Assembly (NCBI GenBank): GCA_035628115.1
Contig: DASPKL010000004.1
Coordinates: 13,001-77,000 of the forward strand
DNA length: 64,000 nt
Direction of reading: 5' to 3'
DNA from: Phycisphaerales bacterium
Lineage (GTDB): Bacteria > Planctomycetota > Phycisphaerae > Phycisphaerales > UBA1924
Under the pieces are notes generated by a model. It did not search any database. It was given only the letters and a program-made list of their open reading frames with translations, and was not told the DNA's origin. Numbering within the stretch: the stretch's first letter is position 1; every line of letters starts with the position of its first letter. A program made the translations under genes and the position numbers. Of this stretch, positions 5,120 through 46,262 are shown piece after piece.

Positions 5120-5191
5120 GGAGAAGATTAGTGCATAGTGGGTGGTGCGTAGGAAGAAAGAGACGGAGAGACGAAGAGACAGAGTGAAGCC

Positions 5192-5247
5192 CCCTCACCG
5201 GTCGCCTGCGGCGACCACCTCTCCCCGATGATGCGGGGCGAGGGAGG
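5192..5247. repeat. REP-like palindromic element, family B (CCCTCACCGG..CCGGTGAGGG type), full copy
   Basis: CCCTCACCGGTCGCCTGCGGCGACCACCTCTCCCC followed by GATGATGCGGGGCGAGGGAGG. Inverted-orientation copies are at 36501-36559 (full) and 34517-34555 (core only). The internal GTCGCC/GGCGAC arms can form a hairpin. Confidence 0.75.
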
Positions 5248-6323: not shown

Positions 6324-6437
6324 GCGGGAGCGTAGGAGAGAGCACGTCCGGCAGGATCGAGAACATCAAAACAGCAAAGCTCAAAGCAGCACAGAGGAGG
6401 AGCAAGCACGCCCGGAACGGGAAGCGGCGGCACGGTA

Positions 6438-28119: not shown

Positions 28120-28171
28120 GACTCTTCCTCCGATCGCAACACGAGCGAATCCCAGCCCAATTGTAATCTTA

Positions 28172-29104
28172 CTACCCCCGCCGCCGCGCCGCGACGAGCA
28201 GACCCGCCGCGAGAAGCGCAGCGCCCGCCGGCGCGGGCACGATCATGATGTTCGCCCCCAGCACCTGCGTGTCGAGGACGCGGTAGCTTCCGAGGTCGGT
28301 TGCGCTCTGCTGCCACGCGATATACCGGCTGTCGTCGGCGCTCTCCGCGTTCCCGACGCGGAGGAGTGAGCCGTCCGCCACGCCCATCTCGATCGTGCGC
28401 ACGTCCGGGTTGTCGGCGGAGAGGAGGATCGCGCCCCGGAAGACGGTGATGTTCTGCGTCCCGCCCTGCCACGCCGTCCCCGCCGACGCCTGCGCCAACT
28501 GCGAAGTCGCGACCCCTCTGAGGATGCTCAGAAGATCGCCGGTCGGGACCGGTGTGGCAGCCAGGCTCGCCTGGGGCCAGTTGCTGCAGTACCCGCCCGC
28601 GAGGCGCGCCCAGGAGCCCTGCGGCGCGCCGTGCGACCCGCCGTCGTGCCGGAAGTCGGTGAGTACGTTGAAGCTCGCCGCGTTCATGGCGGTGCTCCCG
28701 AACGGGAAGACGCGGCCATAACCGCCCATGACCGGCGCAGTGCTTTGGGCCTCTTCGGCCGTGACCATCGTCGGCCACGGCGGCGGGTTCGGCCCACCAG
28801 CCGATCCGCCGTTCCGCGTGAACGGCTCGAAGCTGTCCCGCGATGAGCCCTCGCCGGTGTTGTCGAAGTTGCTGAATGTGGGCTGGAACCGCGCGTTGCC
28901 GAGGCCGAGAAGGTCGGTCCGCGTCCCGGTGTAATTGATCATCACCCGGAACTCGATCCGGTCCCCGGGCATCGCCGCGACGGCGTTCGACCACGTCCCG
29001 TCGGGGTGGGCCACCTGATAGATGATCTGCTGCGATTCCTGCGCGGCCGCCATCGACGCCGCGGCACCGACCGTCACGATCAACGCCCGCACGCTCCGGC
29101 GCAT
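28172..29104 (-). CDS. secreted PEP-CTERM-anchored protein, tandem paralog 3 of 4
   Basis: ATG at 29102-29104 (MRRSVRALIVTVGAAASMAAAQESQQ) matches the paralog N-termini. The 76-aa upstream extension in the track is not conserved. Tail VPAPAGAALLAAGLLVAARRRG. Confidence 0.8.
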   Translation of the reverse strand: MRRSVRALIVTVGAAASMAAAQESQQIIYQVAHPDGTWSNAVAAMPGDRIEFRVMINYTGTRTDLLGLGNARFQPTFSNFDNTGEGSSRDSFEPFTRNGGSAGGPNPPPWPTMVTAEEAQSTAPVMGGYGRVFPFGSTAMNAASFNVLTDFRHDGGSHGAPQGSWARLAGGYCSNWPQASLAATPVPTGDLLSILRGVATSQLAQASAGTAWQGGTQNITVFRGAILLSADNPDVRTIEMGVADGSLLRVGNAESADDSRYIAWQQSATDLGSYRVLDTQVLGANIMIVPAPAGAALLAAGLLVAARRRG

Positions 29105-29178
29105 GGCAAGCCCTCCGACCATGTGGAGTCTACCGCATATTCGGGGGGATGCCAGGAAAAGTTCCGAGAATTGCGGTG

Positions 29179-30105
29179 TTAACTCGCATGCCGCCGCCGT
29201 TTGGTCACCGCCCAAGATGCTGCTGCAAAGATCAGGGCTCCGGACGGCGCGGGAACGACCGCGACGGTAGCGCCGAGAATCTGCGTACTGAAGGCGCGAT
29301 AGCTGCCGAGGTCGGTCGGCGACACCTGCCACGCAATGTATCGCTGGTCATCGGCGCTGTTCGTCCCTCCGTTACGCAGCAACGAACCTTCTGCAATACT
29401 CAACTCGACAACGCGACTGTCCATGTTGTCCAACGCGAGCCTGAAGGCGCCCCGGAAAACGATCAAGTTGGACGTACCGCCCGCCCACGCCGCCCCCGCG
29501 TTCGTTTGGTTCAACTGGCTCGAAGCGATACCCCGCAGTATGTTGTTGATTTCTGCCGTCGGAATCGGAGGCGCTGTCTGGCTGGGCAATGGCCAGTTGC
29601 TCGAGAATGTTCCGGCAATTCGAGCCCAAGATCCGGCAGGCGCTCGGTTGTGTCCGACGTCATGACGAAACTCTGTCAGCACGTTCATGTTGCCCGAAGC
29701 CATAGCCACGGAAGCGTACGGAAAAACGCGGCTGTACGCAACGAGCGGGGCGGTCGATGCGCCTTGCGCTTGCGTCAGGACGCTGTTGGGGATTCCGTTA
29801 CTACTGGTGCCGTTGTTCAGCCACGGCAGAAACTCATCCCGTGAAGCGCCAGCGCCCGCGTTGTCAAAGCCGCTGAACGTTGGCTGGAATCGCGCGTTGC
29901 CGAGACCGAGCAGGTCCGTGCGCGTGCCCGTGTAGTTGATCATCACCCGGAACTCGATTTGGTCGCCGGGGAGCGCGGTAACTAAGTTCGACCATGTCCC
30001 GCCCGGGTGCGCAACCTGAAAAATCAGTTGCTGGGACTCTTGAGCGACGAGCGTCGGGGTGCAAAGCCCGGCTGCCGCTAGAACGGCCGCGGTACGGTAA
30101 CTCAT
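29179..30105 (-). CDS. secreted PEP-CTERM-anchored protein, tandem paralog 4 of 4
   Basis: ATG at 30103-30105 (MSYRTAAVLAAAGLCTPTLVAQESQQ), preceded by GGGAGAGAGAC on the coding strand. Tail VPAPSGALIFAAASWAVTKRRRHAS. The rest of the 587-aa track ORF is an Arg-rich extension overlapping rarA. Confidence 0.8.
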   Translation of the reverse strand: MSYRTAAVLAAAGLCTPTLVAQESQQLIFQVAHPGGTWSNLVTALPGDQIEFRVMINYTGTRTDLLGLGNARFQPTFSGFDNAGAGASRDEFLPWLNNGTSSNGIPNSVLTQAQGASTAPLVAYSRVFPYASVAMASGNMNVLTEFRHDVGHNRAPAGSWARIAGTFSSNWPLPSQTAPPIPTAEINNILRGIASSQLNQTNAGAAWAGGTSNLIVFRGAFRLALDNMDSRVVELSIAEGSLLRNGGTNSADDQRYIAWQVSPTDLGSYRAFSTQILGATVAVVPAPSGALIFAAASWAVTKRRRHAS

Positions 30106-31550: not shown

Positions 31551-31662
31551 GAAGCGAGCGTACGTGCCGGGGTGAAGAGGGGGCGAAGCGCAGGCGAGGC
31601 ATTCGGGATTCGTGATTCGGCATCCGCCGCACGCCGCCGCGGGCGCCATGGGCGGACTCGAT

Positions 31663-31809
31663 GACCGCAGAGACACAGAGGTACAGAGAAGAGAAAGACG
31701 GGATTGGGTTCGACACGCGAGAGCAGCGGGAACCCGGGTGCGTCCCCGCCTTCTCTTCCAACCTGCCATTTCTTCTTTCTTCTCTGTGCCTCTGTGTCTC
31801 TGTGGTGAA
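31663..31809. repeat. MITE-like hairpin element, family A (CACAGAG-rich terminal inverted repeats)
   Basis: The left arm GACCGCAGAGACACAGAGGTACAGAGAAGAGAAAG (31663-31697) is the imperfect reverse complement of the right arm ...CTTTCTTCTCTGTGCCTCTGTGTCTCTGTGGTGAA (ending at 31809). The same end motif recurs at 36605-36632, 41709-41728 (degenerate) and 42674-42703. Confidence 0.7.
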
Positions 31810-32187
31810 CCCGCTCGCCCACCACCGACGCCCGGCCGGGTCTCTGCACGAATGCCGAGCCACCAACCCCGGATCCCGATCTCTCTTCCCCGGTCATTGA
31901 ACGCCGAACCTCTTCTTCACCTCTATTTCCTTCCCTCGCCCCCGAACCCAACGTATTGTTTTCGCGAGGTGGTGGCATCCGCGGCGGCGCGCTCTGGCGG
32001 GGCGTGCAAGGCGCGGATCGGCGGGACGCTCTCCCGCGCGAATGGCAGCCCCGCCCGCCGTTGGTCGGCCCGTCGCCGTCCTCCCGCCGGGACAGCGCCG
32101 GGCCAACGCACCTGCCGCGCGGCGAGCACCGCCGCGGGCGCGGGGAAACGCGCGGGGCCGGGAGCGACCGGCGCGCCGACGACACGC

Positions 32188-34194
<2,007 letters not shown>

Positions 34195-34317
34195 GCCGGT
34201 ACCCCGCCGCTGGTGGTCCGCCCCTCCGGGGCGGAGTCTTCTCTTCGGGCGTTCCGACTTCGCCACCGGCCTTCTCGCGCGGACGCGGGGAGTGGGGGAG
34301 CGGGAGACACCGAGCAT

Positions 34318-34342
34318 GTGGGGCAGGCGTCCCGCCTGCCAC
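34318..34342. repeat. REP-like palindrome, family C (GTGGGGCAGGCGTCCCGCCTGCCAC)
   Basis: Identical 25-mer at 35903-35927. The arms GGCAGGCG / CGCCTGCC form an 8-bp stem with a 3-nt loop. Confidence 0.8.
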
Positions 34343-34516
34343 CGAGCGCCCGCGGCGCCCGCACCGCACCGCCCGCACGCGACCGCCCGCGTCCGTACGA
34401 GCCCCGTGCGCGAGCACGGAGCGATGAACCATTCGCACCGTCAAAGCGCGCGTCACCCGGCCTGCGTCTTCTCACCTTCCCACCTGTTCACCTGCTCACC
34501 TCCTCATCTTCTCCAT

Positions 34517-34555
34517 GGGGAGAAGTGGTCGCCGTCCGCGGCGACCGGTGAGGGG
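34517..34555. repeat. REP-like palindromic element, family B, core copy (inverted relative to 5192)
   Basis: GGGGAGAAGTGGTCGCCGTCCGCGGCGACCGGTGAGGGG, followed by TCTTC as at 36560. Confidence 0.7.
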
Positions 34556-34605
34556 TCTTCGCGCACGAGACGGCGACACCCCACCCGGCCATAGGCTTCG
34601 CGGCC

Positions 34606-35430
34606 GTGGACCCCGATGCGTCCCAACCCGCGAGCCCACCCGGTGCGCAGCCGGACGCCGCGCCCGGCGACATCCCCGTCACCGTGACCGACGACCGCAT
34701 CGCGGGCGCGGTGCGCTTCACGCCCGACGACTGGCTCATCTACTGGCGTTGGTATTACCTCGACCGCCCCGAGGCGCTCTCCGCGGAGCGCATGCGATAT
34801 CGCCACGCCAAGAACCAGTATCGCAAGACCTTCCTCGCCGCGGCCGTCGGGATGTTCGCCCTCTGGATGTGGCACGCCCACCGCGTCAAAACCGGCGCCG
34901 ACCTCGAGGGCGAATGGCTCGGCGGGCTCGCGCTGATGCTCGTCCTCGTCGTCTACTTGTTCTCGAACGTCCCCAAGCCGGTCGACCGCTCGGCGCAGCT
35001 CGGGGCCTACCGCGACCAGATCCGGAAGAACCCGCCCGCGCAGCGCGACGGGTGGTGGCGGTTCGAGTGCACGCCGCGCGGGCTCCGCGTGACGGGTGAC
35101 GGCGTCGAGTACGCCGTCGGCTGGAGCCGCGTGCACGGCGTCTACGACCGCCCGGATGCGGTCTTCGTCTACACCAACGGCTGGCCCGCGATCATCCCCA
35201 ACCGCCTCTTCACCGGGGGCGGGCGCGACGCCGCCGTGCGGCGCATCGGCGACTGGGCGCGCTCCGCCGCGGGGAGCGACGCCTCCCGCATCGCCGCGTA
35301 CCTCGCCGACCACGACGCCAAGTGCCCCGACTGCCGCCACAACCTCCGCGGCCTGCGCGACCTCGCCTGCCCCGAGTGCGGCGCGATGATCAGCCGGTAC
35401 GACGTGCCCGAGCCCTTCGCGGCGGGGTGA
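34606..35430 (+). CDS. hypothetical membrane protein, YcxB-like (PH-like) middle region and C-terminal CxxC...CxxC zinc ribbon
   Basis: 274-aa ORF with two hydrophobic segments (FLAAAVGMFALWMW, LGGLALMLVLVVYLF). A segment RGLRVTGDGVEYAVGWSRVHGVYDRPDAVFVYTNGWPAIIPNRLF recalls YcxB-family domains. It ends with CPDCRHNLRGLRDLACPECG. GTG start is uncertain. Confidence 0.55.
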   Translation: MDPDASQPASPPGAQPDAAPGDIPVTVTDDRIAGAVRFTPDDWLIYWRWYYLDRPEALSAERMRYRHAKNQYRKTFLAAAVGMFALWMWHAHRVKTGADLEGEWLGGLALMLVLVVYLFSNVPKPVDRSAQLGAYRDQIRKNPPAQRDGWWRFECTPRGLRVTGDGVEYAVGWSRVHGVYDRPDAVFVYTNGWPAIIPNRLFTGGGRDAAVRRIGDWARSAAGSDASRIAAYLADHDAKCPDCRHNLRGLRDLACPECGAMISRYDVPEPFAAG

Positions 35431-35442
35431 CGCGGGGAACGC

Positions 35443-35589
35443 GAACACAGAGCAAAACGGAGAGAAGAAGAGGAAAACAGAGAGGAGAATACTGGGCTCA
35501 GAAAAGAAGAGCATCGTCTCGCTCTTCTTTTCAACCAGGTTTTCCTCTTCTCTGTCTTCCTCCTCTTCCCTCTGTCTTGCTCTGTGTTC
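35443..35589. repeat. 147-bp imperfect palindrome between convergent genes; a central perfect 12-bp hairpin may act as a bidirectional terminator
   Basis: The ends GAACACAGAGCAA (35443-35455) and TTGCTCTGTGTTC (35577-35589) are exact reverse complements. The inner stem is GAAAAGAAGAGC (35501-35512) / GCTCTTCTTTTC (35521-35532) with an 8-nt loop. The right end overlaps the TAG of the minus-strand gene. Confidence 0.7.
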
Positions 35590-36263
35590 TAGGCGGCCAC
35601 CGTCGCACTCACGCGCTCGCCCCAGGCGCCGACCTCGCCGGTGGTCGTCAGCCACCGGCACTGGTAGTGCACCGTCTTCCCCGCGTGCGCGGGCTCGAAG
35701 GACAACCGCACGCCGTCGCGGGTGATGGTGCGGACGTAGCGGTACGCCTGCTCGTCCTGCGGCGCGGGCGCGCCCGGCTCGGTGAGCGCGACGTAGACCT
35801 CCGCGCCGAGGACGCCGCGGGGCTTGCGCCGCGCGGGGGAAGATTCAGAAGGCACGAAGCGGAGACGGTGTGTAAACCGCGCGTCCTGCTCGACGCTCAC
35901 GTGTGGGGCAGGCGTCCCGCCTGCCACCGCGCCGCCCCCGGCGCCGCGCACGGTCAGCCCCATGTCCGCCCGGTTCGCGTTGGTCGTCAGCGGCATCGCC
36001 TGGATCAGCGCCGCCAATTGCCGCGCTGCGCGCTCGAGCGATGCGCGGGATTCGTTCTTGGTCGTCGTCGCGGCCCTGGCCGCATCGCGCGCGGCGCGGG
36101 CCGCGCTCAGGTCGGTCGCGAACTGCGCGGCCAATCCCTGCACGTCGATCGCGGGGGAGGGGTCCGCGCCGGTGAGCAGCAGGAACTCGTACGCCCGCGC
36201 GCCGAAGTGCTCGGCCCACGTCGCGAAGTCGGCGTCCTCTCTGGGGACGAAGTCGTGGGGCAT
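35589..36263 (-). CDS. hypothetical protein, island-flanking paralog L (helical N-part, FN3-like C-part)
   Basis: ATG 36261-36263 (MPHDFVPREDADFATW...) aligns with the paralog at 41869-42528. Shared blocks are DADF..W, H.LRFV......RR.KP.GVLG.E and GKT..Y..RW....GE.G.WGE...AT.AA. Confidence 0.7.
   Translation of the reverse strand: MPHDFVPREDADFATWAEHFGARAYEFLLLTGADPSPAIDVQGLAAQFATDLSAARAARDAARAATTTKNESRASLERAARQLAALIQAMPLTTNANRADMGLTVRGAGGGAVAGGTPAPHVSVEQDARFTHRLRFVPSESSPARRKPRGVLGAEVYVALTEPGAPAPQDEQAYRYVRTITRDGVRLSFEPAHAGKTVHYQCRWLTTTGEVGAWGERVSATVAA
35903..35927. repeat. REP-like palindrome, family C copy lying in frame inside the paralog L CDS
   Basis: Identical 25-mer to 34318-34342. 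On the coding (minus) strand it is translated as VAGGTPAPH. Confidence 0.8.
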
Positions 36264-36500
36264 GGCGACGGCATCGGCGATTCCCGCGCGCAACTTCACC
36301 GGTACACGCGATCCGCGTGGTCTTCCCCGCGACCCGCGCGGTGCACCCCGCGCGGTCCGCGCGGCCCCACGCCCGCGCCGGGGCGGCCCCCGCGTCCATC
36401 GCGGCCTTCCCCGAGCAACGCGGGGAAACCCCCGGCCGTCGCGGGGAACGCACCGAACGATCCGCGGGCGAGCGAATCCGCGCGCCGGGAGCCCGGCGCT

Positions 36501-36559
36501 CCCCTCCCTCGCCCCGTGTCTTCACGGGGAGAGGTGGCGGCGCAGCCGCCGGTGAGGGG
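36501..36559. repeat. REP-like palindromic element, family B, full copy (inverted relative to 5192-5247)
   Basis: CCCCTCCCTCGCCCCGTGTCTTCACGGGGAGAGGTGGCGGCGCAGCCGCCGGTGAGGGG. This compares with the reverse complement of 5192-5247. Confidence 0.7.
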
Positions 36560-36604
36560 TCTTCCACCCCGATGCCTCACCTCCGGACGCCGCGGGTGGG
36601 CCGG

Positions 36605-36690
36605 TTCACCACAGAGGCACAGAGACACAGAGGTGGACCGGGTCGCAGAGCGCACGGAACAGGAAGCCCGACCGTGAGGGAGGGCATTCC
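36605..36690. repeat. left 86-nt inverted repeat bounding the low-GC island
   Basis: It pairs with 41643-41728. The outer 20-mer is 18/20 identical and the inner 33-mer is 30/33 identical to the reverse complement of the right copy. Composition drops immediately after 36690. Confidence 0.8.
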
Positions 36691-36830
36691 CACTGATTTC
36701 AGAATCGAGCCATTTGCTGAGTAAGCCAGACGACTTCTGGCTCAAGGCCGACAAATACTACACGCCCAGTCTTTCCATACAGGCCTCGCCGACGAGCTTG
36801 CTTGGAGTAAAGGAAGCCCTACAGTAGGGC

Positions 36831-37724
36831 ATGCTCAACAAGCACCAGATTATTTCAGAACTTAAAGAGCAAATTTTGATTGCTGGGCACGAGCCCACCG
36901 CTCAGTTCTTTGCAGAGAAAGGCGAACCAAAACGATTCGATGATGGCAGTGCCCTGATACTGCAGGGAGATACTACCGATTCTGTTTTCTTTATCCTAGC
37001 CGGTCGGGTCGACGTATTTGTGAATCACCGATATGTCGGCAGTCGGCAGAAACGTGAGCATGTGGGCGAGATGGCACTGCTCCACCCTGCTTTGGCTCGA
37101 TCGGCAACCGTACAGGCGGTCGGTAGCGTGACTGCACTGGAGGTGTCATCCGTAGATTTCATTCATGCGGCAAACAAGCACCCTCCCATCTGGTTGTCCA
37201 TCGCGAGAACATTGGCTGAGCGACTTCGCGAACGCGAGAAGTTGCTCCGCCCGAAGAACCCGAAGCCTGTGATATTCATTGGCTGCGCGTCGGAATCAAA
37301 GGTCATTGCCGACTTGGTGGTTCAACAGTTCGAGTACGACAAAGCCAAGTTTGACGTAGTGCCTTGGTACCACGGCGTGTTTGGTCCGAGCCGATACACT
37401 ATTGATGATTTGATGAAGCAGGTAGACAGGGCCGACTTCGCACTGTTCGTATTCCATCCCGAGGACGTTATCACCAGTCGGGGTGCTTCGACCGACGCGC
37501 CTCGTGACAATGTTGTTTTTGAGCTTGGACTGTTCATGGGGCGAGTAGGACGCGAGCGCGTGTTTATGCTTCAGCCGCACGGCATAGATCTGAAAATCCC
37601 TTCGGATCTCACCGGCATGGCTCCGCTCAAGTACACGACCGGCACCGGCGGTCCGAAACCAGCCGACATGATAACCCCAATTAATTTACTGAAAGAGATC
37701 GTCCTGAAGGAGGGCGGTCGGTAG
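36831..37724 (+). CDS. cyclic-nucleotide-binding domain fused to a TIR-like (CAP12/PycTIR-type) effector domain
   Basis: The N-terminal half carries a CAP/cNMP phosphate-binding cassette, GEMALLHPALARSATVQA, preceded by LILQGDTTDSVFFILAGRVDV. The C-terminal half has VIFIGCASES..., PRDNVVFELGLFMGRVGRERVFML and LKIPSDLTGMAPLKY. These match my recollection of the 'predicted nucleotide-binding protein containing TIR-like domain' family used by CBASS/Pycsar effectors. Confidence 0.8.
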   Translation: MLNKHQIISELKEQILIAGHEPTAQFFAEKGEPKRFDDGSALILQGDTTDSVFFILAGRVDVFVNHRYVGSRQKREHVGEMALLHPALARSATVQAVGSVTALEVSSVDFIHAANKHPPIWLSIARTLAERLREREKLLRPKNPKPVIFIGCASESKVIADLVVQQFEYDKAKFDVVPWYHGVFGPSRYTIDDLMKQVDRADFALFVFHPEDVITSRGASTDAPRDNVVFELGLFMGRVGRERVFMLQPHGIDLKIPSDLTGMAPLKYTTGTGGPKPADMITPINLLKEIVLKEGGR

Positions 37725-38250
37725 TGGCCTTGCGTTCACACGCGGTGTGCGACAGGTAGCTGCCCCGAAGTGTCCGTGGATGCTCCCTTATGCGCATTAT
37801 CGCGTACTCGATCGAGCCGAGGTAGCCGTGATTCCAGTAGTCCCACTCAGCTGGCCAGTTCGTGAGGCCCCGGAGATGTGCGTCGTAGTGGCGGTTGATC
37901 AATGACGTCACGTCATTCACGAACCACTCGCAGCCCTCGTCGACGATGGCACGCGCGGGCTTCCCCTTCCAAGCCATCATGTGTCGCCATACATCCACAA
38001 GAGTCCAGCACATAGGCGGTCCATTGTGCCACTCGGAGCCGGTCTTCATCCAAGGCTCGTAGCACGCCGCTATAGGACCTTTGCGCTTGAGATCGCGAAA
38101 GCTCCATGGCACATGCACAACAATCGGCGCCAAGACTGCAGGTGCGTCGAGTCGACCAGCGACGCGGTACCACTTGCCCGTGACGGGGCTAATGGATGGC
38201 TCGCGAAGCCGTAAAGCCAGCTTCTTGGCGAAGCGAAACGAGTGACTCAT
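37681..38250 (-). CDS. hypothetical 189-aa Trp-rich soluble protein, translationally coupled to the tandem cyclase
   Basis: ATG 38248-38250 overlaps the TGA (38247-38249) of the upstream gene. It has 11 Trp in 189 aa, no TM segment and no recognisable motif. The last 44 nt overlap the 3' end of the convergent TIR gene. Confidence 0.6.
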   Translation of the reverse strand: MSHSFRFAKKLALRLREPSISPVTGKWYRVAGRLDAPAVLAPIVVHVPWSFRDLKRKGPIAACYEPWMKTGSEWHNGPPMCWTLVDVWRHMMAWKGKPARAIVDEGCEWFVNDVTSLINRHYDAHLRGLTNWPAEWDYWNHGYLGSIEYAIMRIREHPRTLRGSYLSHTACERKATTDRPPSGRSLSVN

Positions 38251-39701
38251 GGATGGTGGGGCTTGCTGCTGAACGTTTGGTATTGCCCCGGCGCGACGGA
38301 AACGCGCGTTTGCGCCGGTGCAGCAGCAGCTGAAGCACGAACACGATTTAGCCCCAAAGCACTCGCTTTCTTGAACAACGTTGAAGGCTGAGCGCGGACA
38401 GTGACTGCTGTTTCGAACGCTCGCTTGTAGCTGTCGTGCAAGCGGTCCCAGTCGACTTTGTAGAGGACGAGTTCGCTGGCCTTCGGGTTGATATCACCAA
38501 ACGCTTGGGCGCTTCGCCCAACGCCCTCCCCTGCACCGACCAAGAAGCGCCGGCCTGCCAGAATCACGGCACCCAAATAGACATTGCCGCCAGCGTTGCC
38601 GTGCACCGTACCACCCGCGACCCCGTACGCCCATCCCCCGAAACCACACCCACCTGCCCGGTCGCCCATTTCTTTCTCGAAGTCGAGCGCCAGCTCGACG
38701 AGGCGCTTCGGTGCGGCGTCGTCATAGCTGTCCCGTGTAGCGAAAACGGCAGCGGCTGTGAAGTTGTCGCCCGCCCATGGCAATTGCACCATGCTCTCCT
38801 TGTGGCGCGCGGTAAAGTCGGCAGCGCACTGCATGACCTGGTAGAACTCTGTCGCCAAGGCCTGTAGCTTGGCATCGTCGTTCATGCACTGTTCAACCCG
38901 CTTCGTGAAGCCGTCGAGGTCCGCCCTCATCAGCCACCCGAAGTAGATCTCGGGCTTGTCGGCAACCGGGTCGCCGAAGTCCACCGGCACCGCGCGGGCG
39001 ACCGTCTCTTTCAGGCCGCTTCGAGCCTCCTTATACAGAACCTGTGGCGAGAATTGACGGGCTTCTCTCACCATACCGACGGAATCATCAAGCCTGACTC
39101 TGATCTTGGCGAGGTCTTCAATGACCCACTCCCTTCTCGTCGGGTGCCAGCAGCCGATGTGGAAGTCCTTCAAAGCGCGGTCTTCCTTGTTGCGCTCAAG
39201 CTGCGAATACAGGTACTTCGCAGGCCGGTTGGCAGCGGTGCCCAACGAGACCCACGAGTCGTCGCCGTGCACCCCCCGCTGGGAGACTACCAGTGTCTTG
39301 CCGACATCCATGGTCATGCACCAGCTCTGAACGCGCGATGCGCGGTCGTCGAAGACGCCGTTGTAGATCTGGTGCAACTCTCCAGCGAAGGAGAGAAGCG
39401 GCTCGAAGTCGTCGTTCCCCACAGGGATGCCGATGTGGAGCAGGGATCCCTGAACCTCCATCAGCGTTCCGCCCCGTCGGTCCGCGAGCATCTGAGCGGC
39501 ATGCGATGCACGAGCGACCGAGCGAAGAAACGCCCTTGCGTCATCTGCCGTTGTGGCGTTCTCGTACTTCGGTTGGAAGTCGAGCTTCACGTAGAGGTGT
39601 GCGAGGAGGACCGGTGAGAACGGGAAGCTCCCGGCTTGCTTTCTCGCTTCGAACAGGTCCTTGAAGTCCTTCGCCCGCTCCGCCTTGATCGTTGTCGGCA
39701 T
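38247..39701 (-). CDS. tandem class III nucleotidyl-cyclase-homology protein (degenerate N-domain + catalytic-looking C-domain)
   Basis: ATG 39699-39701 is preceded by GGAG (cacGGAGtagaaccaATG). The C-domain has LMRADLDGFT and AGDNFTAAAVF (the two metal-Asp motifs) plus GVAGGTVHGNAGGNVYLGAV. The N-domain has the same layout (LYVKLDFQPKY, VQGSLLHIGIP, MTMDVGKTLVV...LGTAANRPAKYL), but both Asp positions are substituted. Confidence 0.65.
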   Translation of the reverse strand: MPTTIKAERAKDFKDLFEARKQAGSFPFSPVLLAHLYVKLDFQPKYENATTADDARAFLRSVARASHAAQMLADRRGGTLMEVQGSLLHIGIPVGNDDFEPLLSFAGELHQIYNGVFDDRASRVQSWCMTMDVGKTLVVSQRGVHGDDSWVSLGTAANRPAKYLYSQLERNKEDRALKDFHIGCWHPTRREWVIEDLAKIRVRLDDSVGMVREARQFSPQVLYKEARSGLKETVARAVPVDFGDPVADKPEIYFGWLMRADLDGFTKRVEQCMNDDAKLQALATEFYQVMQCAADFTARHKESMVQLPWAGDNFTAAAVFATRDSYDDAAPKRLVELALDFEKEMGDRAGGCGFGGWAYGVAGGTVHGNAGGNVYLGAVILAGRRFLVGAGEGVGRSAQAFGDINPKASELVLYKVDWDRLHDSYKRAFETAVTVRAQPSTLFKKASALGLNRVRASAAAAPAQTRVSVAPGQYQTFSSKPHHP

Positions 39702-40175
39702 TGGTTCTACTCCGTGACTGCGGCCTAACCGGGCAGAGGGCAACCCCCGTGCCAAAAAGAACTAGTCGGAATTCGGGGGGTAACGGCCCCCTAGCGGCCC
39801 GCCTACGCGGGCGGTCGTGACACCCGGTGGCACCCGGTTGTTGGAGTCTGCCAGAACGGCAGCGTAACCTATGGTTCATTCTGTAACCAAGCTCAACAGC
39901 TGGACTTCTGGACCCCCTAAAGGTGGTCAAGAGACGGCGGCTGCGACGATCCCCAGTGAGATCTTTTCCAAGAGCTACCCACAGCTTCATCTCCGGCTGC
40001 ACCACCCCCTTTTCTCTTGGCCCCGCGCGCCAGCGGGCGGTCCGGGCAGCGTGGGGCTTGAGAAGGAGCAGTGTGCGGTGAACAGACAGCCCGATCGTCG
40101 GACAGAGTGTGCAAAGTCGGTGCGGATGGCCGAGGTCGACAAATGTTGCGGAGACTTGTAGCGGTATCAGGAGCT

Positions 40176-40886
40176 TTACAGGCTCCAGTAGTACGACGAG
40201 CGGTAAATCCGCAGGCTCGGGTGGGCGTTCCAAGTTCGTTCTTCCCACATGCTTTTCGAACCATCCGTGGTCACCTTGACGGTGGAGGCGATTCTATCGA
40301 ACACGTCGCCAGTGATCCAAGTCGAGTAAATGCCATCCCGAAGTGAACACAACTTGGCCGCGTAGTTGGCCGCACGCCCGACCCACACGAGGTCATTCGC
40401 GCCACGAATGCCCGTCCGCGCGACCATAAGTTTGCTCGTATCAATGCCGACTGAGTGTCGCACTTCAAAGTCTTTCAGATTATCCTTGTAGTAGTCCTTG
40501 AGCGCGGGGTTGATGATCTTGGTCACCGCATGATTTATCGCCAAAGCAGCACGGACGGCGGCAGTGTTCTTTGACTCGCCAATAAAAATGCCCATCACCC
40601 GGTCGCCGTCAAACGCGGTGATCTCGCCTTTCTGGTTCCTGATTATCCGACAGGCACAGTTCAAGTAGCATTTGTACACGTCAGCAGCGAAAGTGGCTTT
40701 GTACTTGTTCACCAGATTCGTGCTCTCCGCAAGGTCCGCGTACAAGCACGTGGCGTCTAGGCTTACCCCGGTGCTTCCAAGCTCGATGTCTTCTGTCTCT
40801 GGAACAACCCGACCGTCTGTCATCGTCCACTGGGCCTTGATGATCTTGTTGACTTCCGCGTTGAGATCCTCAGTCATCCCCATCAT
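40176..40886 (-). CDS. single-domain class III nucleotidyl cyclase, Pycsar PycC-like
   Basis: 236 aa with CLYADLAESTNL, ITAFDGDRVMGIFIG, AAVRAALAI and VGIDTSKLMVARTGIRGANDLVWVGRAANYAAKL. This is the typical CHD layout without extra domains. Confidence 0.8.
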   Translation of the reverse strand: MMGMTEDLNAEVNKIIKAQWTMTDGRVVPETEDIELGSTGVSLDATCLYADLAESTNLVNKYKATFAADVYKCYLNCACRIIRNQKGEITAFDGDRVMGIFIGESKNTAAVRAALAINHAVTKIINPALKDYYKDNLKDFEVRHSVGIDTSKLMVARTGIRGANDLVWVGRAANYAAKLCSLRDGIYSTWITGDVFDRIASTVKVTTDGSKSMWEERTWNAHPSLRIYRSSYYWSL

Positions 40887-41408
40887 TCACCCCTGATAGA
40901 GGCCGTAGCAGGCAACCAGCCAAATCGGCGTTCCCGCGAAGAGCCAACCCATAGCGTGCCGCACTGCCCTGTACTTCGCCGTCGCGATCTGTGCATTACG
41001 GTGAGTTTGGAGGATTAAGTCTTCCAAATACTTTCTGTCCGAGCGGCCTTTAACTGCCGCGTCGTATTGAATGGCTGTCATAGACGCAATTCCGCGGAAG
41101 AATATCAATGATCCCTGGGGGCCGACTGTCTGGGGAAAGGTCGCGGCTGCCGACCATGCGATAGAGAAAAGCATTGGTACACTTGCAGCTCCCATGAGAA
41201 CGCCGGACTGCCAAGTAATGCATTCCGGACCCGGAGACACGGTTCCAGCCACGGCAAGCATAGCTGTCGCCACGCCGATCACGACTGGTGTCTTACTGTC
41301 CACGGCGCGAATCCAGTCCAACTGGTGCTGGAAAACAGCTTCTTGGCGAGTGATGGCGCTACTAATGTCCGGGACATCGGGAGTCTGGCCAATCGTTGCT
41401 TCTGGCAT
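40887..41408 (-). CDS. small multi-TM protein, Pycsar PycTM-like effector candidate
   Basis: ATG at 41406-41408. The maximal ORF starts at TTG 41438. About 173 aa, with an N-terminal helix QHQLDWIRAVDSKT followed by TM segments PVVIGVATAMLAVAG and GVLMGAASVPMLFSIAWSAAA, plus a C-terminal TM segment WLFAGTPIWLVACYGL. The stop abuts the cyclase ATG (TGAATG). Confidence 0.6.
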   Translation of the reverse strand: MPEATIGQTPDVPDISSAITRQEAVFQHQLDWIRAVDSKTPVVIGVATAMLAVAGTVSPGPECITWQSGVLMGAASVPMLFSIAWSAAATFPQTVGPQGSLIFFRGIASMTAIQYDAAVKGRSDRKYLEDLILQTHRNAQIATAKYRAVRHAMGWLFAGTPIWLVACYGLYQG

Positions 41409-41642
41409 GTCAATGTTCCGTCGGGCGACCGGTGACAAACTGACCGTCGCCTCGGCAAGTCAAAGAGGCCATTGATGGCAGGGAGAGTAACCGCCATGCG
41501 TCTGGCCAACCGATCATACCCTATGCTGAACTGTCCCGAACGCAAGCATTGTCACACGGTAAGAGGTAGTCGCTCCGCGCCCCTCCGCGACCTCGGCGTT
41601 CAAATCTGTGCGAAAGACCGGCGGGGACCACCGGGCCACGCA

Positions 41643-41728
41643 GGAACGCCCTCCCTGACGGTCGGGCTCCCTGTTGAGCGCGCCGTCGGCTGAATCCATC
41701 TCTTCCCGCTCTGCGCCTCTGCGGTGAA
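41643..41728. repeat. right 86-nt inverted repeat bounding the low-GC island
   Basis: Reverse complement of 36605-36690 (see that feature). It lies 140 nt upstream of paralog R, in the same relative orientation as the left copy has to paralog L. Confidence 0.8.
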
Positions 41729-41868
41729 TCTTCCCGGTTCGTCTTCAGCACCATCCCCCGTTGCCCGATCCCCCGTTCTGTTCCCCCCGCGTGCCGGTGG
41801 ACGGCCCGGGCAGCGGCGGGGCTTGAACGCGTGCGGGCCGACGAATCCACAGACAGGAGCGTGTTCTG

Positions 41869-42528
41869 ATGGCAGATTACATCCCGGGCCCCGACGCCGA
41901 CTTCAACGTCTGGCAGAACAACTTCGTCACCTACGCCAACGCCAACCTCGCCGCCCTCGGCCTCGTCGCCGCGGACATGTCGCCGATCACCAGCGCCCAG
42001 TCAACCTGGGCCACCAACTTCCCCGCCCACGTCGCCGCGAAGCAGGCGGCGCAGGCCGCCAAGGCCGCCAAGGACGACGCCCGCCGCGCCTACGTCGCGG
42101 TCATCCGCCCCCTCGTCCGCCGCCTGCAGGCCTCGACCCAGGTGAGCGACGCCGAGCGCGCCTCGCTGGGGATCACCGTCGAGCAGACGCCCGCGCCCAT
42201 CGGCCCCCCGGCCACCGCCCCTGTCTGCTCGATCGAGTGCGGGGCCCGGTTGCAGCACACGCTCCGCTTCGTGGACGAGACCACGCCCACGCGGCGTGCC
42301 AAGCCCCCGGGCGTGCTGGGCGTCGAGATCTGGCACAAGGTGGGCACCACGCCCCCGGCCAACGAGGGCGAGCTGCGCTTCGTCGCGGTGGACACCAACG
42401 CCCCGTACGTCGTCAGCTACGACGCCGCGGACGGCGGCAAGACCGCGTACTACTGGCTGCGCTGGATCTCCCCCAGCGGCGAACGCGGCCCCTGGGGCGA
42501 GCAGTCCCAGGCGACGATCGCGGCCTAA
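41869..42528 (+). CDS. hypothetical protein, island-flanking paralog R
   Basis: 219 aa, MADYIPGPDADFNVWQNNF... It is alignable end to end with 35589-36263. Both end in ...WGE...AT[IV]AA. Confidence 0.75.
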   Translation: MADYIPGPDADFNVWQNNFVTYANANLAALGLVAADMSPITSAQSTWATNFPAHVAAKQAAQAAKAAKDDARRAYVAVIRPLVRRLQASTQVSDAERASLGITVEQTPAPIGPPATAPVCSIECGARLQHTLRFVDETTPTRRAKPPGVLGVEIWHKVGTTPPANEGELRFVAVDTNAPYVVSYDAADGGKTAYYWLRWISPSGERGPWGEQSQATIAA

Positions 42529-42673: not shown

Positions 42674-42703
42674 CCTCTGTGCTCTCTGTGTCTCTGTGGT
42701 GAA
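42674..42703. repeat. family A end motif, solo copy (CCTCTGTGCTCTCTGTGTCTCTGTGGTGAA)
   Basis: It matches 31782-31809 and the reverse complement of 36605-36632. Confidence 0.7.
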
Positions 42704-42764
42704 TCGGCCCACCCGCGGCCCGCGCACCCGCTCCGTCTCTCCGTCTCTTCATCTCTTCTTCCCA

Positions 42765-44267
42765 CTACTTGATCGTTACGTCGTAATACAGCCCGTTCTT
42801 CTCCCGCGTCACCGCCCCGGCGAACTTCGACCAGACCCCGTTCGTCACGCCGTCGGGCGCGGGGCGCTTCGAGGGCTCCTTCTCGTCGGGCTCGCTTGTC
42901 AGGACGCGCCCGCGGCAGCGGCGGCGCAGCTCCGTCATCAGGTCCTTCTCCGGGATCTTTTTCCACCCGCTCGCGACCGCGTGCGCCCTGCTCACCGGCA
43001 CGAACGCGGCGAGGTCCGGGCTGTCCATCATCTCCAGGCCCTGGGCCTTCATCGTCCCGTTGTGCGAGCCGTGGTGCCCGACCTTGTAGAGGGCCACGCG
43101 CTTGAAGATGTCGGCGATCGTCACGATCCCGTCGTTGTCCGTGTCGAGCTTCGAGGCCGCGCCGCTCGGCAGCCGGAACTTGAGCGTCTGCCACGAGCGC
43201 CAGCTCCCCGTCTGCGCGTCCCCCGGGAAGAAGAGGACGCGCCCCGTCTCCACGATCTCGAAGGCCAGCGCGAGGGAGGTGTTGTTGATCCCGACGTCCA
43301 GCTGCAGCGCGAGGCGACCCGTGCTCGTCAGCCAGTCGTTGTCGATGCACCGCCATTCCTCGACGTCCACGCCCTCGTAGAGGTCGCGGATCGCGGCGTT
43401 CCGCTCCTTCGCGTCGCGGGCCCTGCGGGCGCACCAGCGCGGGGCGAAGGGGCGGAACGCGTCGTCGTCCCACGAGCCCGCCGCGGCGATCGCGGCGAGC
43501 CCCAGCGCCGGGCTCGCGGCGTACGCCTCGCCCTCGTCCGGGTTCTCCTTGTAGAGGAAGTTGTAGTTCTTGGGGGGGCCGAGCACGTACATGCGCAGCC
43601 CCGGGATCCCCGCGGGCTCCTCCTCGACGACGCCGGGCTCGAAGAACGTCGGCGTGCGGACGAGCCGCAGGGCCGCGTCCATCGCCTTGTCCACGCTCGC
43701 CGAGAGCTTCTTGCTCTCGAGCCTGAGGTCCGCCGCGGTCTTGCCGTCCGCCCCGGCGTCGAAGCCGAGGAAGCCGAGCTTGTCGCGCACGATCGCGGTG
43801 TCGCGGCGGTTGGTGAGGCCGGCCTCGGTCATCCGCCCGAGCGCCGCGCCGAGCGCGGCGAAGCCCGCCTTCTTCTCGTTGTCGAGCGTTTTCGCGAAGT
43901 CGTCCCCGGGATTCTCCGTCCAGGCCGCCCACACCTCGCCGACCCTGATCGATCGCTTGAAGTCGTCGATGGCGAGGTCGAAGCCGCAGACATGGTCGTA
44001 GTGCTCGTGCGTGACGGCGAGGGCGTCGAGCTTGCCGCCCGTCGCCTTCGCGATGTCGGCGATCACCTTCTTGAAGAGCGCGGGCTTGGCGTCGGCCTTG
44101 ACGACGACGCCGCAGTCGATCATGACGTACTTCACCTGCCCGCCCTTCAGACGGAAGGCGAAGAGGAAGCAATCGCCGAAGCCCATGCGGTAGCAGCGGA
44201 CGGTGACGCTCCCCGGCGGCGGGCTGAGCGTGGGCGCCGTCGTGGCGGCGGGGTTCTTCTTGGCCAT
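42765..44267 (-). CDS. metallo-beta-lactamase-fold hydrolase, ComEC-type (putative nuclease)
   Basis: 500 aa with the MBL motif AVTHEHYDHVCGF, a later FFPGDAQ, and the late motif LYKVGHHGSHNGT characteristic of ComEC/Rec2-like MBL domains. No signal peptide. Confidence 0.8.
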   Translation of the reverse strand: MAKKNPAATTAPTLSPPPGSVTVRCYRMGFGDCFLFAFRLKGGQVKYVMIDCGVVVKADAKPALFKKVIADIAKATGGKLDALAVTHEHYDHVCGFDLAIDDFKRSIRVGEVWAAWTENPGDDFAKTLDNEKKAGFAALGAALGRMTEAGLTNRRDTAIVRDKLGFLGFDAGADGKTAADLRLESKKLSASVDKAMDAALRLVRTPTFFEPGVVEEEPAGIPGLRMYVLGPPKNYNFLYKENPDEGEAYAASPALGLAAIAAAGSWDDDAFRPFAPRWCARRARDAKERNAAIRDLYEGVDVEEWRCIDNDWLTSTGRLALQLDVGINNTSLALAFEIVETGRVLFFPGDAQTGSWRSWQTLKFRLPSGAASKLDTDNDGIVTIADIFKRVALYKVGHHGSHNGTMKAQGLEMMDSPDLAAFVPVSRAHAVASGWKKIPEKDLMTELRRRCRGRVLTSEPDEKEPSKRPAPDGVTNGVWSKFAGAVTREKNGLYYDVTIK

Positions 44268-44282
44268 GGGTCTGCTCCCGGT

Positions 44283-46262
44283 TCAGCCGTGGCGGTGGAG
44301 GAAGGCCAGGGGCTCGTCCCCGTCGAAGGAGGCGGTCATGCCCGTCTCGAGCGACCACTCACGGGCGGCCTTGAGCCGCCGGTCGCGCATGACGCTCTTG
44401 TGGATGCAGTAGCGGCAGCACCCTTCATCGACGTCGATGAGGAGGGTGGCCCCGCCGCGGATGCGCGTGAGCGGGGGAGCGTCGGGCTTCTCCCCGGCAT
44501 CGGCCGCCTTCTGGTCTTTGTCGGTGGCGTAGACCGCGCGGGACTGCACGAGCTCGACGACGAGGTCGTGCGAGGAGGCGCCGCCCTCGTGCACGCGCCG
44601 CGCCGGGCGCACGCTGCGGACCCACACGGCCGGCCCGCGCCCGCCGGAGAGCCGGCGCACGGTGCCGGGGGCGTTGTGGCCGACCTCGATGCCCAGCTCG
44701 CGCGCCCGGTTGGGGTCCTTGCGGAGCCGCTCCACCCACACCGACGTGATGCGCTGCTGGTAGAGCTGGGCGCGGACGAAGAGGTCGCGTCGGTCCTCGC
44801 CGATGCGGAAGTCGCGGATCGGATCCAGGGGCGTGCCGTCCCCGCCCATCGCGCGCTTCTCGCCGGGGCTCGCCGGGCGCGCGAGCTCGCCCGCGAACCA
44901 TCCGAAGCCGTCCGTCGGCTTGCTCGGCGGCTGCCACAGGAGCGACCGCTCCGCGAGGGACGTGACGCCCGGGGGGAGGATGCCCCACGCGCGGAACCCC
45001 TCGATGAACGCGACGCGGTAGCCCATGTCGTCGGTGGGCCGCACGTCCGCGTCGGCGGTCACGAGCGCCCGGAGGAACTCCCCGAACGTCGCCTCCCCCG
45101 GCGGCATGTAGTCGAGCGCCCGGATGCAGAGGCGGAGCGTGTGGGCCGCGGCGCGCGACGCTTCCTCGGCGAGGCTCTCGACGAGCAGTTCCGAGAGTTC
45201 TCCGGGCGGGAGCACGCCCGTGCCCCCGGTCGCGAGGCGGACGATCGGCCGCGTGCGGCGCTCGTAGATGGAGAGGAACGCGCCGAAAACGGCGGCGACG
45301 AGGATCGCCCCCCGCTCGTGCGGCTCGGTGATTCTCCCGAGCTGCGTCGGGTCGGGCGTGCGCGCCTTCCAGCGCCCGTCGGGCCCGATCGTGCCGATGG
45401 CGCTGCGCAGCGCCCCGCGCCGGCCCGTCGCGGCGCCGAACTGCACGGCCAGCTCGCCCAGGGCGTTCTCGGCGCGGAGGTCGCCCCGGGTGCGCGCGAT
45501 CTGGTGGCGCAGAGCCTTCGGGAGGGAGAAGTGGCTCATCAGCGCGACGATGTCGGCGAACCCCTCGTGGAAAGCGAGGGCGTCGGGCCCGGTGCTCTCG
45601 AGGAAGAGGCCGTGCGAGCCGTCCAGCACCGCGTGCGTCACCTCGTGGGCGATGATGTCGTGCGAGAGGCAGGAGAAGACCACGCCCCCCGGGAGGCCCG
45701 CCGCGTCGCCCGCGCCGGCCGGGAAGTAGCCGAACAGAAGCGCTGCCTTGTCCGAGGAGTAGTACGCGTTCGCCTCGCGCAGCGCGTGCGGGTAGACGCG
45801 GAGCCGGCGCACGAAGCGCTTCTCCCATCCTTTGATGAGCTCGCCCCGGTCGTCCTTGTCGCGGCTGTTCCAGAGGACGCGCCGGCCCAGCGCCCGCTCG
45901 AACGTCTCGATCACGCGCATCGAGACGGCGTAGACCATTTGCTGGTGGAAGCGCGGGTCTCCCTCGTCGGGCGTGAGGCCGTCGGTCGCGAGCACGTTGG
46001 CGGCGTTGAGGTCGATCGGCGGGTAGAAGCAGCCGCTCGCGGGGTCGTGGTCGATCACCTCCAGGTATTCGCCGACGGGCCCGCGGGTCATCCCGCCGCG
46101 CCGGCCCGGCTCCGCGGGCGATTCCCACGGGATGTCGACCGTCGTCTCGTTGATGTCCGCGAGCGAGAGGCGCGTCGCGAAGCTGGGGTCGAAAGCGAAG
46201 ACGCGGAGCGTGCGCCGCGTGGGCGTGTCGCCCTGCATGCGGAATGACCGTGCGGCAGCCAT
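44283..46262 (-). CDS. cytoplasmic M4/thermolysin-like gluzincin metallopeptidase
   Basis: 659 aa. IIAHEVTHAVLDG followed about 20 aa later by AFHEGFADIVA parallels thermolysin HExxH...ExxxD. No signal peptide or TM segment seen. A 15-nt gap separates it from the downstream MBL gene. Confidence 0.7.
   Translation of the reverse strand: MAAARSFRMQGDTPTRRTLRVFAFDPSFATRLSLADINETTVDIPWESPAEPGRRGGMTRGPVGEYLEVIDHDPASGCFYPPIDLNAANVLATDGLTPDEGDPRFHQQMVYAVSMRVIETFERALGRRVLWNSRDKDDRGELIKGWEKRFVRRLRVYPHALREANAYYSSDKAALLFGYFPAGAGDAAGLPGGVVFSCLSHDIIAHEVTHAVLDGSHGLFLESTGPDALAFHEGFADIVALMSHFSLPKALRHQIARTRGDLRAENALGELAVQFGAATGRRGALRSAIGTIGPDGRWKARTPDPTQLGRITEPHERGAILVAAVFGAFLSIYERRTRPIVRLATGGTGVLPPGELSELLVESLAEEASRAAAHTLRLCIRALDYMPPGEATFGEFLRALVTADADVRPTDDMGYRVAFIEGFRAWGILPPGVTSLAERSLLWQPPSKPTDGFGWFAGELARPASPGEKRAMGGDGTPLDPIRDFRIGEDRRDLFVRAQLYQQRITSVWVERLRKDPNRARELGIEVGHNAPGTVRRLSGGRGPAVWVRSVRPARRVHEGGASSHDLVVELVQSRAVYATDKDQKAADAGEKPDAPPLTRIRGGATLLIDVDEGCCRYCIHKSVMRDRRLKAAREWSLETGMTASFDGDEPLAFLHRHG

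Follow-up and report, generated by a model that had tools for sequence, protein, structure and literature searches.

Repetitive extragenic palindromic (REP) repeats, including those of the REPIN type, are paired with REP-associated tyrosine transposases (RAYTs) (Bertels & Rainey 2011; PMC3116915, PMC3337134), and islands of defense genes occupy hotspots between conserved genes in the Escherichia coli pan-genome (PMC10121019) and in P2 and P4 (PMC9122126). Here we analyze a 64,000-nucleotide (nt) stretch of a Phycisphaerales bacterium (assembly GCA_035628115.1, contig DASPKL010000004.1, positions 13,001 to 77,000), referred to below as the window, in which two inverted 86-nt repeat copies flank a low-GC island that carries a Pycsar defense system and lies between two divergent paralogous genes, parL and parR. 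The "minimal mobile elements" of Neisseria form a comparable hotspot system.

We found that each 86-nt copy is a composite of two different dispersed repeat families and that the arrangement in the window is a nested palindrome with the Pycsar island in the loop position. The copies are probably neither transposon ends nor duplicated gene leaders. To the account that we favor, in which they are arms of extragenic palindromes, derived from a preexisting element that the island split, and are passive, we give about an even chance of being right. Comparison loci and contigs are designated by L numbers, and the repeat features of the window are as follows.

36605 to 36690, plus strand: left 86-nt copy (IRL), from pattern search and alignment
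41643 to 41728, minus strand: right 86-nt copy (IRR), with its outer end 141 nt upstream of the parR start codon, where the conserved parR leader has its distal edge
36656 to 36690, plus strand: forward REP-type arm, with core AGCCCGACCGTGAGGGAGGGC at 36665 to 36685 (nhmmer E = 1.6e-7)
41643 to 41677, minus strand: reverse REP-type arm, with its core at 41648 to 41668 (nhmmer E = 1e-6)
36589 to 36634, plus strand: the left copy's CACAGAG-box module, a dispersed repeat of host type whose best partner is 42674 to 42719 (93%)
41709 to 41735, minus strand: degenerate CACAGAG box (CGCAGAGGCGCAGAG) of the right copy, from pattern search and alignment
42674 to 42719, minus strand: third CACAGAG-box copy, downstream of parR, then a purine-rich hairpin reaching down to about 42530
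31649 to 31821, no strand: compact CACAGAG-box palindrome (arms of 44 nt, spacer of 85 nt), which represents the host element in its canonical form
35443 to 35589, no strand: purine-rich palindrome between the 3' ends of a YcxB-like gene and parL

Two repeat families in one inverted pair

An earlier, sequence-only reading of this DNA had described the inverted copies as conserved at both ends and diverged in the middle, and its coordinates and mismatch counts proved correct. The outer 20-mer at 36605 to 36624 (TTCACCACAGAGGCACAGAG) is identical to the reverse complement of 41709 to 41728 at 18 of 20 positions, and the inner 33-mers (36658 to 36690 and, inverted, 41643 to 41675) agree at 30 of 33, with 0 matches expected for either pattern from dinucleotide shuffles. 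A gapped local alignment of 36598 to 36690 with 41643 to 41735 scores 82, far above shuffled sequences (28.8 ± 4.5, maximum 47), and BLAST aligns the two copies over 87 columns at 74.7% identity. Between the blocks the copies are only about 50% identical, with gaps; their longest common exact run is 12 nt, and inward extension of the pair is not significant (score of 16 versus 15.4 ± 2.3). The offset from outer to inner block is 66 nt in both copies. The claim that the repeats delimit the low-GC cargo exactly holds on the left, where GC content falls from about 0.75 to 0.52 directly after 36690, but not on the right, where it recovers about 80 to 100 nt inside the right copy, a difference that the earlier reading had itself pointed out. 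The pair is also not unique, since the outer block is found again at 31790 to 31809 and 42684 to 42703.

The inner module is a REP-type arm of a family that is widespread in soil bacteria. Its core (AGCCCGACCGTNAGGGAGGGC) occurs in at least 120 soil-metagenome contigs and 3 viral contigs, with 167 exact cores in these loci, up to 6 to 7 cores per 12- to 14-kb contig, and several copies in contigs such as L056 and L082. The arms are normally paired 5 to 150 nt apart as inverted doublets, or hairpins; in the listed metagenome and viral contigs, 78 of 87 cases have a reverse arm no more than 150 nt past a forward arm, and most spacers are 14 to 25 nt long. A typical doublet folds at −40 kcal/mol (z = −14.5), and a single arm is at most a weak, imperfect palindrome (stem AGCCC..CC....GG..GGGCT, −5.9 kcal/mol, z between −0.7 and −2.0). 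In the metagenome contigs the elements lie mostly just past stop codons. The GC content of core-bearing contigs is mostly 52 to 58%, with a range of 49 to 69%, and an identical 21-nt core across this range (L020 to L142, metagenome and viral) is unusually broad for a REP family. Sequences 5' of the core split the family into subfamilies (GTGTCAGA, GGGGCAGT, and GGCGGA), and the arms in the window are closer to the subfamily of the higher-GC contigs. No Rfam family corresponds to the inner repeat.

We assign the inner block to the REP/REPIN type because in one contig, L054, its arms (at 282 to 302 and 858 to 878) bracket a gene for an IS200-like, RAYT-like tyrosine transposase. This gene (313 to 765) encodes 150 amino acids (aa) with an HVH motif, scores 27.8 bits against Pfam Y1_Tnp (cutoff, 23), and has as its best NCBIfam match "REP-associated tyrosine transposase" (E = 2e-9), at 37.5 bits versus a curated cutoff of 80. 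L126 holds a partial second case of an arm-bracketed transposase gene. REP/REPIN repeats and their RAYT genes have been described in such an arrangement (PMC3337134). The window itself holds just two REP arms, both at the island edges, by fuzzy search and nhmmer across the 64 kb (next nhmmer match, E = 0.39), and the same searches revealed no decayed partner arm beside either copy; one candidate, at 40078 to 40108, was at noise level. About 300 kb of related Phycisphaerales DNA contains one diverged REP core, at 16494 to 16514 of L005, where it is nested inside a compact CACAGAG palindrome (16446 to 16655).

The outer module belongs to a CACAGAG-box repeat family that is typical of this Phycisphaerales lineage and that elsewhere takes the form of compact hairpins of 150 to 300 nt. 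Boxes of the TTCACCACAGAG type occur at four sites in the window (31.7, 36.6, 41.7, and 42.7 kb; 0 expected), and the left box with its outer flank (36589 to 36634) matches 42674 to 42719 at 93% over 46 nt, better than it matches the right copy. An inverted pair of boxes around a 231-nt spacer forms a compact hairpin at 5871 to 6173 of L001; this spacer contains an apparent small open reading frame of about 66 codons on the minus strand. On direct reading of the sequence, the spacers after the boxes in both 86-nt copies resemble the interiors of other box elements. Host hairpins elsewhere have arms that are 82 to 87% complementary and interiors that are non-complementary, and the purine-rich palindromes in the window are confined to 31.6 to 42.8 kb. 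Among 19 related par loci, L010 alone has a CACAGAG box within its parR leader, placed relative to the parR ortholog as in the window, and in L001 a box lies upstream of the second paralog.

A further dispersed repeat, CGCAGCCGCCGGTGAGGGGTCTTCC..., is found at 36503 to 36564, 5186 to 5247, and 34510 to 34560, and window position 36536, within this repeat, is the point at which Logan contigs of two samples both stop.

The order of the modules in the window is box, spacer, forward arm, 4,952-nt island, reverse arm, spacer, box. We describe this as a nested palindrome with the island at its center because the offsets are equal (66 nt), the arms are in forward-then-reverse order, and the blocks are similar while the spacers are dissimilar, as in the host hairpins. 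When joined, the two sides fold at −68 kcal/mol (z = −6.6).

A defense-cargo slot upstream of parR

The genes and leader sequences between and beside the repeats are as follows.

35589 to 36299, minus strand: parL, the left paralog, with a probable true start near 36254
36691 to 41642, no strand: low-GC island of 4,952 nt between the arms, from the GC profile
36831 to 37724, plus strand: PycTIR effector with a cyclic nucleotide monophosphate (cNMP)-binding domain and a CAP12/Pycsar TIR domain, from domain and PADLOC matches
37681 to 38250, minus strand: 189-aa protein with no assigned function that always adjoins the 484-aa protein in relatives
38247 to 39701, minus strand: 484-aa protein (c502) with a weak PycC-like match, which heads a conserved operon (c502, u189, effector) in relatives
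39982 to 40061, plus strand: diverged copy (61 of 81 positions) of the window's own parR leader (41746 to 41826), inside the island between the 484-aa gene and the PycC gene
40176 to 40886, minus strand: PycC cyclase (PADLOC E = 1e-97)
40887 to 41408, minus strand: PycTM effector, from domain and PADLOC matches
41729 to 41868, plus strand: parR leader, conserved among orthologs and most strongly at 41783 to 41868
41869 to 42528, plus strand: parR, the right paralog, with a helical hairpin and an FN3 domain and with orthologs of 74 to 81% identity in many Phycisphaerales

The view of the segment as foreign, low-GC defense cargo between divergent paralogs was borne out. PADLOC models match PycC (about 1e-97), PycTM (3e-39), and PycTIR (about 1e-97), with E values of 1e-98 to 3e-39 overall, so that a PycC cyclase is present together with effectors (PycTM and the cNMP-binding TIR protein), and the ParL and ParR proteins that face away from the island are 37% identical. 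The same five genes occur together in other Planctomycetota contigs (L143 and L146), with a variant in L145, and these three Pycsar loci lie in other neighborhoods, with no par genes and no copy of the repeat. The PycTIR gene is opposite in strand to the genes for the 484-aa and 189-aa proteins and shares 44 nt at its 3' end with the latter. The PycTIR-type effector gene is codirectional with these two genes, in one operon, in L143 and L146, so that PycTIR is inverted in the window. The 484-aa protein, which has a faint PycC match and no Pfam match and whose closest homolog is 56% identical, and its 160- to 190-aa partner are invariably neighbors of a Pycsar effector and in many cases also of PycC and PycTM. 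The pair may represent a cyclase-like component, so far undescribed, of a composite Pycsar module.

The diverged leader copy at 39982 to 40061 suggests assembly of the island in two or more steps, with the leader as anchor. As another origin of the repeats, we considered that a donor of about 55% GC might have passed on arms and cargo together, and rejected this: core-bearing contigs lack homologs of the island proteins, and the window arms are nearer the high-GC subfamily.

The inverted pair brackets the segment, and the inverted PycTIR gene might be taken as the trace of a flip, so recombination between the repeats could in principle invert the 5-kb island, as the sequence-only reading had allowed. 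We regard such an invertible segment as extremely improbable. Five assemblies from four samples (ERZ27252495, JGI 3300021061, SRR7003766, and SRR7004197) are 99.995 to 100% identical, collinear with the window, and show one orientation; no recombinase or invertase is encoded within 10 kb on either side; the 12-nt longest exact run is too short for efficient RecA-dependent inversion; and a flip of the whole island would not explain the inversion of PycTIR within it.

The parR gene has hundreds of homologs, the best 120 of which are 73 to 100% identical. No Pfam, PHROG, NCBIfam, or PDB sequence match was found for parL or parR, and an AlphaFold model of ParR (pLDDT 90.6) predicts a long helical hairpin followed by a C-terminal FN3 domain. 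The idea that the paralogs are the transposases of a composite transposon was rejected, as the ParR model has no enzyme or recombinase fold and neither protein has a family match. The leader of parR, of about 140 nt, is conserved about as well as the coding sequence in L001, L003, L004, L006 to L010, and L152, with blocks that include CCCCCCGCGTGCCGATCGACGGCTCGGGTAGCGG and GCCGCCGAATCCAG. In this leader RNAalifold predicts no more than a modest stem, in which covariation is slight, and the leader may be a promoter/operator or a structured 5' untranslated region. Conservation of the leader extends to about −140, and beyond that point the genomes diverge completely. Because the right copy ends at −141, it is part of the variable slot and not of the leader.

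This boundary bears on the second proposal of the sequence-only reading, that the copies arose as duplicated 5' leaders, one belonging to parL and the other to parR, and that the island lies inserted between these leaders. Each copy does lie upstream of its paralog in the same relative orientation. However, the proposal fails because the repeats lie outside the conserved leader, the repeat blocks (about 90% identical) are far more alike than the proteins (37%), and both blocks belong to families that occur far from par genes. The 33-mer is, moreover, absent from 19 of 19 related par loci, and the copies lie at unequal distances from the start codons of their paralogs (306 nt on the left and 141 nt on the right). 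We consider this explanation refuted, with very little probability left to it.

In relatives, the DNA just upstream of parR orthologs has a lower GC content and holds unrelated defense systems, as follows.

L001, upstream of the parR ortholog: EcoRII restriction-modification system and Dcm methylase
L004, upstream of the parR ortholog: type IIG restriction-modification system
L007, upstream of the parR ortholog: restriction endonuclease
L009, upstream of the parR ortholog: OLD/AriA-like ATPase
L010, upstream of the parR ortholog: PDC-S41, IS1595, and an IS200-family transposase
L152, upstream of the parR ortholog: large helicase of 1,546 aa

Thus the same anchor is joined to different defense cargo in different genomes, with the Pycsar system in the window, and a second par paralog in either orientation usually closes the slot 3 to 7 kb away. 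The outer neighborhood is not conserved, since the flanking housekeeping genes differ from genome to genome (GroEL, ATP synthase, a sigma-54 regulator, and arginine decarboxylase). L008 carries four copies of par 3' ends (4228 to 4390, 5593 to 5755, 6211 to 6341, and 10562 to 10658), which look like a trace of repeated cargo turnover, and in L003 209-nt direct repeats of 98.6% identity (7326 to 7534 and 10819 to 11027) flank a cargo gene and parR. In the window, a par-like fragment lies at 34256 to 34459 on the minus strand, beside the YcxB-like gene, and a 50-nt direct repeat is found at 34317 to 34366 and 35902 to 35951. Together with the leader copy inside the island, these traces point to turnover by recombination anchored on par sequences.

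Repeats of other families also occur at the edges of this slot. The cargo of L010 is flanked by arms of a different repeat family, direct and inverted, beside an IS200-family transposase gene. Genes of this transposase family lie within 6 kb of par genes in 2 of 19 loci, at 4103 to 4847 of L010, where the gene is bracketed by 130-nt inverted repeats, and at 6214 to 6663 of L018, which is from Bacteroidales. In L005, whose par genes are arranged divergently as in the window, a 26-nt hairpin sequence, GGTACCCCCACGCTCCGCGTGGGGAG, is found in inverted copies at 5596 to 5621 and 9954 to 9979, exactly at both edges of the low-GC cargo. Inverted repeats as a general signature around hotspot cargo were rejected, since such repeats are confined to the window, L005, and L010 and are unrelated in sequence.

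Several features of the window lie outside the slot. Downstream of parR, at 42765 to 46262, are genes for an MBL-fold protein with weak LmuA, Avs1a, and 6A-MBL matches and for a 659-aa protein without matches, and these may be a second defense system on the other side of the anchor. In L151 (JGI 3300073979; 85 to 95% DNA identity), parL lies directly beside the 3' end of an arginine decarboxylase gene, and so the YcxB-like gene with the palindrome at 35443 to 35589 (window 34197 to 35592) is present in one strain and absent from the other. At 26226 to 30046, a tandem array comprises three or four paralogous genes with 66 to 70% DNA identity between units.

Proposed entry of the island between the arms

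The sequence-only reading had also proposed that the copies are terminal inverted repeats of a nonautonomous element. This is unsupported, though a small probability remains, because the hallmarks of such an element are lacking: there is no target-site duplication, the repeat family continues past the terminus, no recombinase lies nearby, and no other copy was found. The left flank (...GGGCCGG|TTCACC) and the right flank (GGTGAA|TCTTCCCGG) have no direct repeat in common. CACAGAG-box similarity runs at least 16 nt outside 36605 (36589 to 36634 versus 42674 to 42719), past the proposed terminus. No transposase, integrase, or recombinase is encoded within 10 kb on either side of the island (precomputed Pfam annotation; genes at 31.9 to 52.5 kb), and no Y1 transposase in the 64-kb window. 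We found neither a second copy of the island nor the same ends around other cargo: look-ups of exact proteins return the same collinear locus from the four samples, and metagenome arm pairs more than 1 kb apart enclose ordinary genes, not cargo. Among the five assemblies there was no polymorphism in orientation or occupancy. The interpretation in that reading is, as a whole, partly supported.

Two other kinds of site were considered and rejected. An integron attC site (R'' RYYYAAC and R' GTTRRRY core sites), suggested by GCTCAAC/GTTGAGC, fits the right copy only (by eye); the corresponding sequence on the left is ACGGAAC, the motif is missing from the metagenome consensus, and no integrase is nearby. 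For a known RNA or tRNA acting as attachment site, no tRNA was reported by ARAGORN and no match by Rfam at gathering thresholds, and relaxed Rfam thresholds gave only generic long-hairpin (microRNA precursor) matches.

The account that we favor begins with a palindromic element at the slot edge before the island arrived. Entry of the island at or near the center of this palindrome would have split the element, either through breakage of a hairpin or cruciform and repair with foreign DNA or through short-homology exchange within the arms. Cargo would be gained and replaced by recombination anchored on parR, its leader, and the second paralog, and the arms would be passive in its acquisition. 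The data show directly which two repeat families are involved and what form they normally take, that the slot is a hotspot, where conservation of the leader stops, and that transposon hallmarks are lacking. We infer that the two arms were once one element, as well as the route by which the island entered, from the nested arrangement and from the presence of only two REP copies in 64 kb, both at the island edges.

A number of observations weigh against this account. We found no intact box/REP/loop/REP/box element with these offsets, and the composite in L005 is asymmetric, with a single REP arm. Of about 10 hotspots, only 3 have REP-like repeats flanking the cargo on both sides, and L010 also has direct copies, so that repeats may simply accumulate at slot edges. 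The leader remnant inside the island, which points to construction in at least two steps, complicates a single insertion. The link to RAYTs comes from one complete contig (L054) and one partial contig (L126), with a score below the NCBI RAYT cutoff. Finally, for repeat copies and RAYT genes the source genome is represented by the 64-kb window, and the preexisting palindrome is reconstructed from occupied alleles.

The most serious alternative, which we consider a good deal less probable but still worth keeping in view, is that two independent solo copies settled in noncoding DNA at the edges of the slot, were never one element, and had no part in acquisition of the island. Three unrelated REP-like families at slot edges in the window, L005, and L010, both direct and inverted in L010, would fit such settling, as would the clustering of CACAGAG-box and purine-rich hairpins in every intergenic gap from 31.6 to 42.8 kb. 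The leader remnant at 39982 to 40061 points to separate arrival of the left and right parts of the island, and the inverted orientation of two solo copies would be a 50:50 outcome. Yet the REP core is rare in this lineage (two copies in the 64-kb window, each at an island edge, and a single diverged core in about 300 kb of relatives), the equal 66-nt offset of the modules in both copies requires a common composite source, and REPIN singlets are decaying remnants rather than mobile units (PMC3337134).

An active role for the arms is unlikely. In one form of it, the forward arm, cargo, and reverse arm constitute a REP-bounded, nonautonomous cassette mobilized in trans by a RAYT or IS200-like HUH tyrosine transposase; slightly more doubtful still is a giant REPIN-like cassette that such an enzyme transposed in trans, as a single strand, into a host palindrome's loop, with the parR slot as its landing pad. 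Transposition of the IS200/IS605 HUH type proceeds through single strands and leaves no target-site duplication, as is the case here. REP-type repeats are possible substrates of a tyrosine transposase, the arm-gene-arm layout is that seen around the RAYT-like gene of L054, and the GC shift begins exactly at the inner end of the left arm. An IS200-family transposase with its own repeats lies inside the L010 hotspot, and another lies beside the par homolog of L018. On the other side, the window contains no Y1 transposase, no second island copy or cargo between such arms was found (arm pairs more than 1 kb apart hold ordinary genes), the Pycsar modules of L143, L145, and L146 have no arms, and the five assemblies are identical. 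To our knowledge, REPIN mobilization has been described only for elements of about 100 nt, which also counts against a cassette of this size.

Comparison with known systems

Neither the repeats nor the locus is categorically new: the repeats are REP/REPIN-like palindromes, and the locus is a new example of a defense hotspot. A striking inverted repeat around an island need not mark the end of a transposon, and palindrome arms can flank acquired DNA in repeat-rich genomes. If palindromes are preferred entry points for islands, or if REP arms carry cargo, this would be an integrase-free route for the spread of defense genes, and if the giant REPIN-like cassette were real, REP/RAYT systems would be vehicles for such genes.

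Like REP and REPIN sequences, the inner module is a short extragenic repeat, with what may be a weak, imperfect palindrome in each unit, and its family normally occurs as inverted doublets with a short, variable spacer that form a hairpin, with several copies per contig (L056 and L082). A gene for a small HUH tyrosine transposase bracketed by arms is found in the family (L054), though not in the window, where there is no RAYT. The window arms differ in lying 4,952 nt apart around defense genes, rather than across the short spacer of a hairpin, and in being nested inside a second repeat family. In addition, the 21-nt core spans contigs of 49 to 69% GC, whereas the REP families described so far are lineage specific, so that the REP-type repeat with an identical core across such soil contigs is of interest in its own right.

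Miniature inverted-repeat transposable elements (MITEs) and mobile insertion cassettes resemble the locus in having passenger genes within inverted repeats and no internal transposase. In contrast to these, the locus has no target-site duplication, its repeat families run past the proposed termini, and we found no same-end copies with other cargo and no occupancy polymorphism.

As in described defense hotspots, there is a fixed slot beside a conserved anchor, with unrelated defense systems in each genome; cargo is usually without mobility genes, and anchor remnants suggest turnover driven by recombination. The anchors here, however, are paralogous FN3-domain proteins with no assigned function and a conserved noncoding leader, and the wider chromosomal neighborhood is not conserved between genomes. 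The locus represents a previously undescribed hotspot for defense cargo in Phycisphaerales, anchored on a conserved FN3-domain gene and its leader of about 140 nt.

With regard to the cargo, PycC, PycTM, and PycTIR fit the PADLOC models of Pycsar. The system differs in its additional 484-aa (faintly PycC-like) and 189-aa proteins, which make it a recurrent five-gene, Pycsar-type module with two uncharacterized partner proteins, and in the inverted position of PycTIR in the window.

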